From assembly GCF_003334305.1 (NCBI RefSeq), contig NZ_QOWS01000024.1: a stretch of 64,000 nt of DNA; one strand, given 5' to 3'. Shown here one piece after another: positions 22,017 to 22,114 of this stretch. The stretch's first letter is position 1; each line of letters begins with the position of its first letter. Under the pieces are notes generated by a model. It saw nothing but the letters and a program-made list of their open reading frames with translations, had not been told where the DNA came from and searched no databases. A program made the translations under genes and the position numbers. Source of the stretch: Escherichia coli (GTDB lineage: Bacteria; Pseudomonadota; Gammaproteobacteria; Enterobacterales; Enterobacteriaceae).

Positions 22017-22114
22017 GCCTGATGCGCTACGCTTATCAGGCCTACATTTTCTCCGCAATATATTGAATTTGCGCGGTTTGTAGGCCGGATAAGGCGTTCA
22101 CGCCGCATCCGGCA
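22017..22114. repeat. BIME/RIP element (REP - linker - REP) downstream of uvrB
   Basis: GCCTGATGCGCTACGCTTATCAGGCCTAC ... CAATATATTGAATTTGC ... GTAGGCCGGATAAGGCG..CGCCGCATCCGGCA. Confidence 0.8.

Follow-up and report, generated by a model that had tools for sequence, protein, structure and literature searches.

BIME-1-type repeats downstream of uvrB and rhlE in Escherichia coli and the IHF-core-like site in their linkers

Downstream of uvrB and of rhlE, a 64,000-nt stretch of Escherichia coli DNA (contig NZ_QOWS01000024.1, here called the window) contains two similar elements, at positions 22017-22114 and 38721-38819, in which two repetitive extragenic palindromic (REP) sequences flank a linker. 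These loci raise the question of what kind of element they represent, and whether the linker between the REPs carries a site for the integration host factor (IHF). We conclude that both are very probably single-copy repeats of the BIME-1 class of bacterial interspersed mosaic elements (BIMEs), that is, non-autonomous units of about 154 nt located between convergent gene pairs. The class is already known, and both loci are typical copies of a repeat family long established in E. coli. The naming of BIME-1 is ascribed to Gilson, Bachellier and Hofnung, and the RIP and BIME-1 descriptions are said to date from 1991-1993. We take RIP (Oppenheim 1993) and RIB (Boccard and Prentki 1993) to be other names for this class.

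Both elements have the BIME-1 layout, with an outer motif, a REP of the Z1 type, an L linker of 34-35 nt, a REP of the Y type and a second outer motif. The left unit, which ends in CTAC, matches the published Z1 string GCCTGATGCGCTACGCTTATCAGGCCTACG exactly, and the right unit, which has GTAG at its 5' end, corresponds to the reverse complement of the published Y string TGCCGGATGCGGCGTAAACGCCTTATCCGGCCTAC, both strings being quoted for E. coli by Durrant et al. 2024 (PMC11208160). These matches confirm the REP-linker-REP anatomy of the RIP type given in a preliminary description of the window. According to Ton-Hoang et al. 2012, the two REPs of a BIME-1, a z1 and a y, are inversely oriented, the long L linker between them is well conserved and often includes an IHF site, and the unit is present in a single copy (PMC3333891). 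Such units are about 140 bp long and vary in presence or absence among isolates (PMC3333891; PMC1187871; PMC2817692), and BIMEs have been proposed to be non-autonomous transposable elements (PMC2817692). The two elements share with the BIME-1/RIP/RIB class the inverse Z1 and Y units, the L linker with its IHF-type site, the single copy, the length of about 140-150 bp with outer motifs, the extragenic location at the 3' ends of transcription units and the presence or absence among isolates. They differ in nothing substantive, the IHF core being one mismatch off the textbook consensus at a position that is itself conserved in the family. The discovery value is small, as the loci are 100% identical to the corresponding intergenic regions of MG1655 (815548-815738 and 832237-832467). 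For annotation, both intergenic regions should be labeled BIME-1/RIP repeats and not novel regulatory sites; the current RefSeq annotation of MG1655 has no repeat_region features at these two sites.

How similar are the two elements to each other? The 29-nt left REP, GCCTGATGCGCTACGCTTATCAGGCCTAC, is identical at 29 of 29 positions between 22017-22045 and 38721-38749 (plus strand). A pattern search that allowed up to 3 mismatches placed this string at three sites in the window, the third at 63899-63927 with 2 mismatches, and gave no matches in 100 shuffles. The 35-nt right REP, GTAGGCCGGATAAGGCGTT[C/T]ACGCCGCATCCGGCA, is located at 22080-22114 and 38785-38819 (plus strand) with a single difference, and agrees with the reverse complement of the published Y string at 34 of 35 positions in element 1 and at all 35 in element 2. 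Its pattern occurs at four places in the window, the other two being Y-type REPs at 12380 and 44058, and at none in the shuffles. The linkers are 34 nt long in element 1 (22046-22079, plus strand) and 35 nt in element 2 (38750-38784, plus strand), with 77% and 80% identity, respectively, to the family consensus AAGGTTTCTGCAATATATTGAATTTGCACGATTTT. They are identical to each other only in the central 18 nt, GCAATATATTGAATTTGC, and 74% identical overall. The 17-nt core string CAATATATTGAATTTGC was found at exactly two places in the window, 22056-22072 and 38760-38776, even with 3 mismatches allowed (shuffle mean 0.34; 4 of 100 shuffles reached two matches). The pairwise alignment thus supports the earlier statement that both sites share the same left REP, linker and right REP for the REPs and the 18-nt core, but not for the linker as a whole nor for the one variable base of the right REP. 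Since the linker identity is close to the family median of 71%, the two loci have no special relationship and are simply two members of one family.

The resemblance between the elements extends about 24 nt leftward and 32 nt rightward of the REPs. In element 1, the left outer motif, AAGACTGATGACAAACGGAAAACA, is located at 21993-22016 and the right outer motif, TAAACAACGCGCACTTTGTCTTCAATAGGAAG, at 22115-22146 (both plus strand). In element 2, the corresponding motifs are AGGCTGATGAACAAACGCAAAACT at 38697-38720 and TTTCACAACAAGCACTTGTCAGCAATTTGAG... at 38820-38851 (both plus strand), with approximate boundaries in both cases. The outer flanks are also conserved in the family, where about 22 nt on the left side fit GACTGATGACAAACGCAAAATT, with 60-80% conservation, and about 31 nt on the right side fit ATGAACAAAGCGCACTTTGTCAGCAATCTGA, which the right motif of element 2 matches. 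Each locus has two REPs only, with no additional REP in either intergenic region, and thus represents a single unit rather than a tandem array.

To place the elements in their family, linkers were collected from one genome per species of the Enterobacteriaceae with a pattern anchored on the REP ends only (TATCAGGCCTAC, 25-45 nt, GTAGGCCGGATAAG), an anchoring chosen to keep the sample free of bias toward the linker sequence. The sample comprises at least 120 loci and at least 128 matches, so that it gives minimum values for the copies per genome and for the taxonomic range, and the exact anchors tilt it toward consensus REPs. Among the matches listed, most loci came from Escherichia coli, E. 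albertii, E. whittamii, Citrobacter, Pseudocitrobacter, Kosakonia, Pluralibacter and Superficieibacter, and the two elements are thus members of a multi-genus family. The linker length in this set peaks at 35 nt (71 of 128), followed by 34 nt (16), and the L motif is present in 89 of the 128 linkers. Its orientation relative to Z1 and Y is constant in all 89 of these elements, and their left REP is always of the short Z1 type (52 strict, 37 with single-base variants) and never Z2 (0 of 89). In a BLAST search with a 43-nt consensus, none of the 5,426 complete E. coli genomes lacked the L motif, which occurs at a median of at least 26 and a maximum of at least 43 places per genome, 99.97% of which are chromosomal. 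One locus in Escherichia albertii (L006:6975-7477) contains four tandem units with a period of 147 nt and L-like linkers (for example CTGGTAATTGTAATATATTGAATTATCAGGATTAT); an L-type linker with an IHF-like core can therefore occur in an array, unlike in the classical single-copy BIME-1.

Does the linker contain an IHF site? The preliminary description had considered the linker consistent with an IHF-binding BIME, and a motif scan agrees, although the match is inexact. The string ATTCAATATATTG on the minus strand, at 22056-22068 in element 1 and at 38760-38772 in element 2, fits the IHF core WATCAANNNNTTR at 12 of 13 positions (8 of the 9 specified), with one mismatch at the same place in both. 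No other match to WATCAANNNNTTR with at most one mismatch is present in either element. Among the 128 listed linkers, 79 contain the core with at most one mismatch. In a profile of 71 independent 35-nt linkers, read on the core strand, the block ATTCAA is conserved at 92-99% and is the best-conserved part of the linker, followed by the TTG at 90-93% and the four N positions at 80-93%, whereas the outer linker reaches 44-79%. The T within ATTCAA that counts as the mismatch is itself 94% conserved across the family. The terminal T-run next to the Y REP is also conserved (85-94%); on the core-bearing strand it forms an A-tract that precedes the core by about 8 nt. This arrangement probably corresponds to that of the lambda H' site, with an A-tract, an 8-nt spacer and a core. 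Conservation in the linker is thus highest at an IHF-core-like site accompanied by this T-run.

How do the units vary among strains? The stretch from uvrB to dinG is 98.7% identical to MG1655. Element 1 is flanked by uvrB (plus strand) and ybhK (yvcK; minus strand) and element 2 by rhlE (plus strand) and ybiA (minus strand), and the REPs begin 37, 56, 52 and 80 nt past the four stop codons. Three alleles were retrieved for the uvrB-ybhK region. The RIP allele is present in the window, in K-12 and, with 95% identity, in O157:H7. The empty allele, found in strain B19429, has an intergenic region of 37 nt, compared with 191 nt in the window, that consists of one hairpin, GAAGCCGGAATATTCTTCCGGCTTC. 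The two alleles differ by exactly 154 nt (21993-22146), including both outer motifs, with GAAG on both sides (21989-21992 and 22143-22146). The true unit is therefore about 154 nt rather than 98 nt long and is composed of 24 + 98 + 32 nt, in line with the published length of about 140 bp. The third allele, from strain DETEC-S586, carries another insert of about 109 nt with a GC-rich palindrome, CCCCTCGTCCCTCCGGGGAGAGGGTGAGGGG, and was found in about 350 genomes at a coverage of at least 80%. This insert, found at 1-7 places per genome, is a low-copy repeat and presumably resembles the Box C repeats.

Among the 5,426 complete E. coli genomes, the uvrB element is present in 3,677 (at least 80% coverage of a 551-nt query across the intergenic region) and the rhlE-ybiA element in 4,299. 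In the O157:H7 strain H6437 (L125:1383-2000), the RIP downstream of rhlE and ybiA itself are replaced by an AT-rich segment that carries the type III effector gene espX2. E. coli strains differ in having or lacking the RIP unit as a whole block, and the natural uvrB-ybhK alleles with and without it provide a ready-made test of its effect on neighboring mRNA ends. In H6437, a different hairpin, GGGCAAAAGAGTATCACAGGCTTTTGCCC, follows rhlE.

The position of the elements relative to genes is biased toward gene 3' ends. The uvrB, rhlE and ybiT loci are all located between convergent pairs. Rough open reading frame (ORF) calls around the 89 L-linker elements gave 60 scorable cases, of which 39 are convergent, 20 co-directional and one divergent, with at least one gene 3' end facing the element in 59 of 60; these classes rest on crude ORF calls and include orthologous loci of related genomes, so the counts are not independent.

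What might such a unit do at these positions? Both REPs form hairpins whichever strand is read, with energies of -13.2 and -11.5 kcal/mol for Z1 and -20.9 and -21.3 kcal/mol for Y on the plus and minus strands, respectively, and the whole region folds better than shuffles (z-scores -2.6 to -4.5). On the DNA, IHF would bind the L linker, whose roughly 35 bp correspond to about one IHF footprint, and by bending the DNA sharply would bring the two REPs side by side. The outcome would be a fixed nucleoid-protein site at the ends of transcription units. On the RNA, an incoming convergent transcript would first meet a stable REP hairpin, which would be Z1 (-13 kcal/mol) for uvrB and rhlE and Y (-21 kcal/mol) for ybhK and ybiA. 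Rather than acting as intrinsic terminators, these hairpins, which have no U-tail, would block 3'-5' exonucleases and thereby leave a stable mRNA 3' end. The elements would have arrived by insertion, most plausibly mobilized by a REP-associated tyrosine transposase, and they also act as landing pads for the REP-specific insertion sequences IS621 and IS1397. IHF occupancy, DNA bending, protection of mRNA 3' ends and mobilization by a REP transposase are here attributed to the elements by analogy with published work on the family. The L linker of BIME-1 has been reported to bind the DNA-bending protein IHF. Term-seq work regards REP hairpins as barriers to PNPase and RNase II that set the 3' ends of transcripts terminating further downstream, and REPs only sometimes contribute directly to Rho-dependent termination (PMC6061677).

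Several points weigh against this reading, in addition to the dependence among the gene-context counts. The match to the IHF core is inexact in both elements. Matches with one mismatch are also common, at about 1 per kb (66 in the 128,000 strand positions of the window), which gives an expectation of about 0.02 per linker. The motif alone is therefore weak evidence, and we have relied on its position-specific conservation in the family instead. The conservation of the linker core could in turn reflect recent common descent or a requirement for mobilization rather than IHF binding that benefits the host. IHF binding at these two loci is extrapolated from published family work, as is the stabilization of the mRNA 3' ends of uvrB, rhlE, ybhK and ybiA, which is plausible on the same basis.

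The matching structure of the two elements could also have been explained by a local segmental duplication or by chance. The copies are only 16.7 kb apart and their left REPs are identical, but the similarity ends about 25-32 nt outside the REPs and the linkers are no more alike than the family median. Moreover, the architecture recurs tens of times per genome and in several genera, and the shuffles gave no match to either REP string. These observations refute a duplication or a coincidence, to which we assign next to no probability. It is very improbable that the linker is a small RNA (sRNA) gene merely flanked by REPs, even though both linkers match Rfam RF02751 (ES036/CssrF sRNA) on the minus strand, at 22038-22079 with 43.4 bits and at 38742-38784 with 43.3 bits, above the gathering threshold of 37.6. 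In Shigella, a northern blot has revealed a cssrF transcript of about 290 nt in the region between dacB and yhbZ (PMC3071730), and many REP regions are transcribed (PMC4550694). However, the 43-nt consensus of the model, AAAuUUGUGCAAAUUCAAUAAAUUGCAGGAaAUACGUAGGCCU, is essentially the L motif with the GTAGGCC end of a REP, and any of the 26 or more RIPs in a typical (median) genome will match it. The hairpin of the model has no covariation support: in 65 distinct 35-nt linkers, pairing reaches 71.9%, compared with 71.0 +/- 0.9% in shuffles (93 of 500 shuffles were at least as high), a contiguous-helix variant pairs in 69.2% compared with 69.5%, and the covariation scores are no higher than those of column shuffles for either structure. 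The hairpin is weak (-3.5 to -5.1 kcal/mol) and its arms are unevenly conserved, at 86-93% for the arm overlapping the IHF core compared with 73-89% for its partner, and a scan for promoter-like sites identified none in either intergenic region. Given the missing covariation and the less conserved arm outside the IHF core, we read the Rfam matches as repeat matches rather than evidence for an sRNA gene, and ES036 matches at other RIP sites should be read in the same way. The elements could alternatively be bidirectional Rho-independent terminators of the convergent gene pairs, as suggested by the stable GC-rich hairpins 37-80 nt past the four stop codons and by a link between REPs and transcription attenuation (Espeli 2001, as cited in PMC6061677). 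There is, however, no T-run after either REP on either strand, and a terminator scan found nothing at the REPs. Its only match was a separate hairpin at 22147-22163, the apparent counterpart of the hairpin that the empty allele retains. The published mapping of 3' ends also sees REPs chiefly as obstacles to exonucleases that lie upstream of Rho-dependent termination. We consider a terminator function highly unlikely.

A different question is why the IHF-core-like site has been conserved. If the unit were purely selfish, the site would be kept because bending by IHF places Z1 and Y, which are inverted, next to each other for the Y1 transposase associated with REPs, and any effects on the host would be incidental. 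In line with this explanation, strains have or lack the unit as a block, the L motif always points the same way between Z1 and Y, and the outer motifs are conserved, as in transposon ends. The proposal that BIMEs are non-autonomous transposable elements also agrees with it, as does the finding that the REP transposase, which requires a REP with a 5' GTAG, cuts at inverted REPs and at sites in linkers (PMC3333891). On the other hand, a literature search turned up no experiment that ties IHF to REP-transposase activity, and the bias toward gene 3' ends and convergent pairs fits tolerated insertion sites and a host role equally well. We regard a purely selfish origin of the conservation as unlikely, but it is compatible with the identification of the elements as BIME-1 repeats, as it concerns why the site is conserved and not what the element is. 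If true, RIPs would be IHF-dependent miniature transposons and the bias toward convergent ends would reflect tolerated landing sites.

The identification as BIME-1 also accounts for the third copy of the left REP in the window, which the preliminary description had placed after ybiT. This copy (63899-63927) is preceded by the left outer motif of the family, and reads ...ATCAGGCCTTG rather than ...CCTAC. The intergenic region between ybiT and ybiU, a convergent pair, contains a complete RIP in MG1655, with Z1 followed by GCAGTACCTGCAATATATTGAATCTGCAGGACTTT and then Y. In strains that are 100% identical to the window over 62800-64000 (L128:1327-1602 and L130:700-830), the left end of IS621 follows GGCCT, and at the right junction ...ACAGTATCT is joined to AC, after which the L linker and the Y REP continue. 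The copy after ybiT therefore ends in CTTG rather than CTAC because IS621 has inserted there. The third left REP is thus confirmed, and is the left half of a third RIP that has been split by IS621. In the window, the left outer motif and the Z1 REP of this element (63876-63925, plus strand) are cut after the CT core at 63924-63925. In the remaining sequence (63926-64000, plus strand), IS621 begins with 75 nt of its non-coding left end, a 100% match to strains with an IS621-family transposase annotated downstream, and the window ends at this point.

IS621 belongs to the IS110 family and encodes a bridge-RNA recombinase. It is present in 2,239 of the 5,426 complete E. coli genomes, at a median of 5 places. 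Its target is ATCAGGCCTAC, with recombination at the CT core (PMC11208160). This target is still present and unoccupied in the Z1 REPs of both intact RIPs. REPs are thus natural targets of IS621, an element that this strain carries and that has already interrupted the third RIP. A second insertion sequence, IS1397 of the IS3 family, disrupts the rhlE RIP of strain 1105 within the loop of its Y REP (L126:1190-1260), with the junction GGCGCTCG/TGAACTGCACCCC. This insertion agrees with the published preference of IS1397 for palindromic units, that is REPs, as its target (PMC1525189).

Two further observations relate to IS621. In the copy at ybiT in strain IGC_RcoliRes_1.1 (L128:1327-1496), the start of the left end is duplicated in tandem over 85 nt, with a junction at another CT (...TTCTAACCT/TGTAT...), a duplication that other IS621 copies do not have (span 232 nt compared with 317 nt). 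It looks like a recombinase-mediated event at a pseudo-core within the left end of IS621 itself. Two non-L linkers from the genome scan, 37-39 nt long and flanked by a Z REP and a Y REP, contain CACAGTATCTAC, which resembles the right end of IS621, ACAGTATCT, joined to AC; these linkers may be footprints or relatives of IS621 junctions.

Other repeats resemble the two elements in part. BIME-2 and atypical BIMEs (Y + Z2, naRNA4/REP325 type) likewise belong to the REP superfamily with GTAG tags and are extragenic, but they have Z2 instead of Z1, short and variable S linkers without the L motif, and are organized in tandem arrays. It is for BIME-2 that an enrichment of gyrase has been published. 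A BIME-2 identity is ruled out for both elements by the Z1 left REP, the long L linker and the single unit. REP doublets, such as the REPIN-like R0 repeats of Pseudomonas fluorescens, are inverted REP pairs with a spacer that are thought to be mobilized by REP-associated transposases, and the Correia elements of Neisseria are small non-autonomous repeats carrying an IHF site (PMC3184786). Both consist of other sequences in other hosts, and the Correia elements have terminal inverted repeats and promoters, so that the likeness is one of analogy only. The window itself contains a REP cluster at 44016-44092 that is a Z2-Y pair of the BIME-2 or atypical type without an L linker and matches Rfam naRNA4 with 78.4 bits on the minus strand (44019-44089). 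A cluster of four REPs at 12258-12414 is also of the BIME-2 or atypical type and has no L linker. Finally, a molybdenum cofactor (Moco) riboswitch is located upstream of moaA, at 23344-23488 on the plus strand (Rfam RF01055, 103.6 bits), where it is known and expected.

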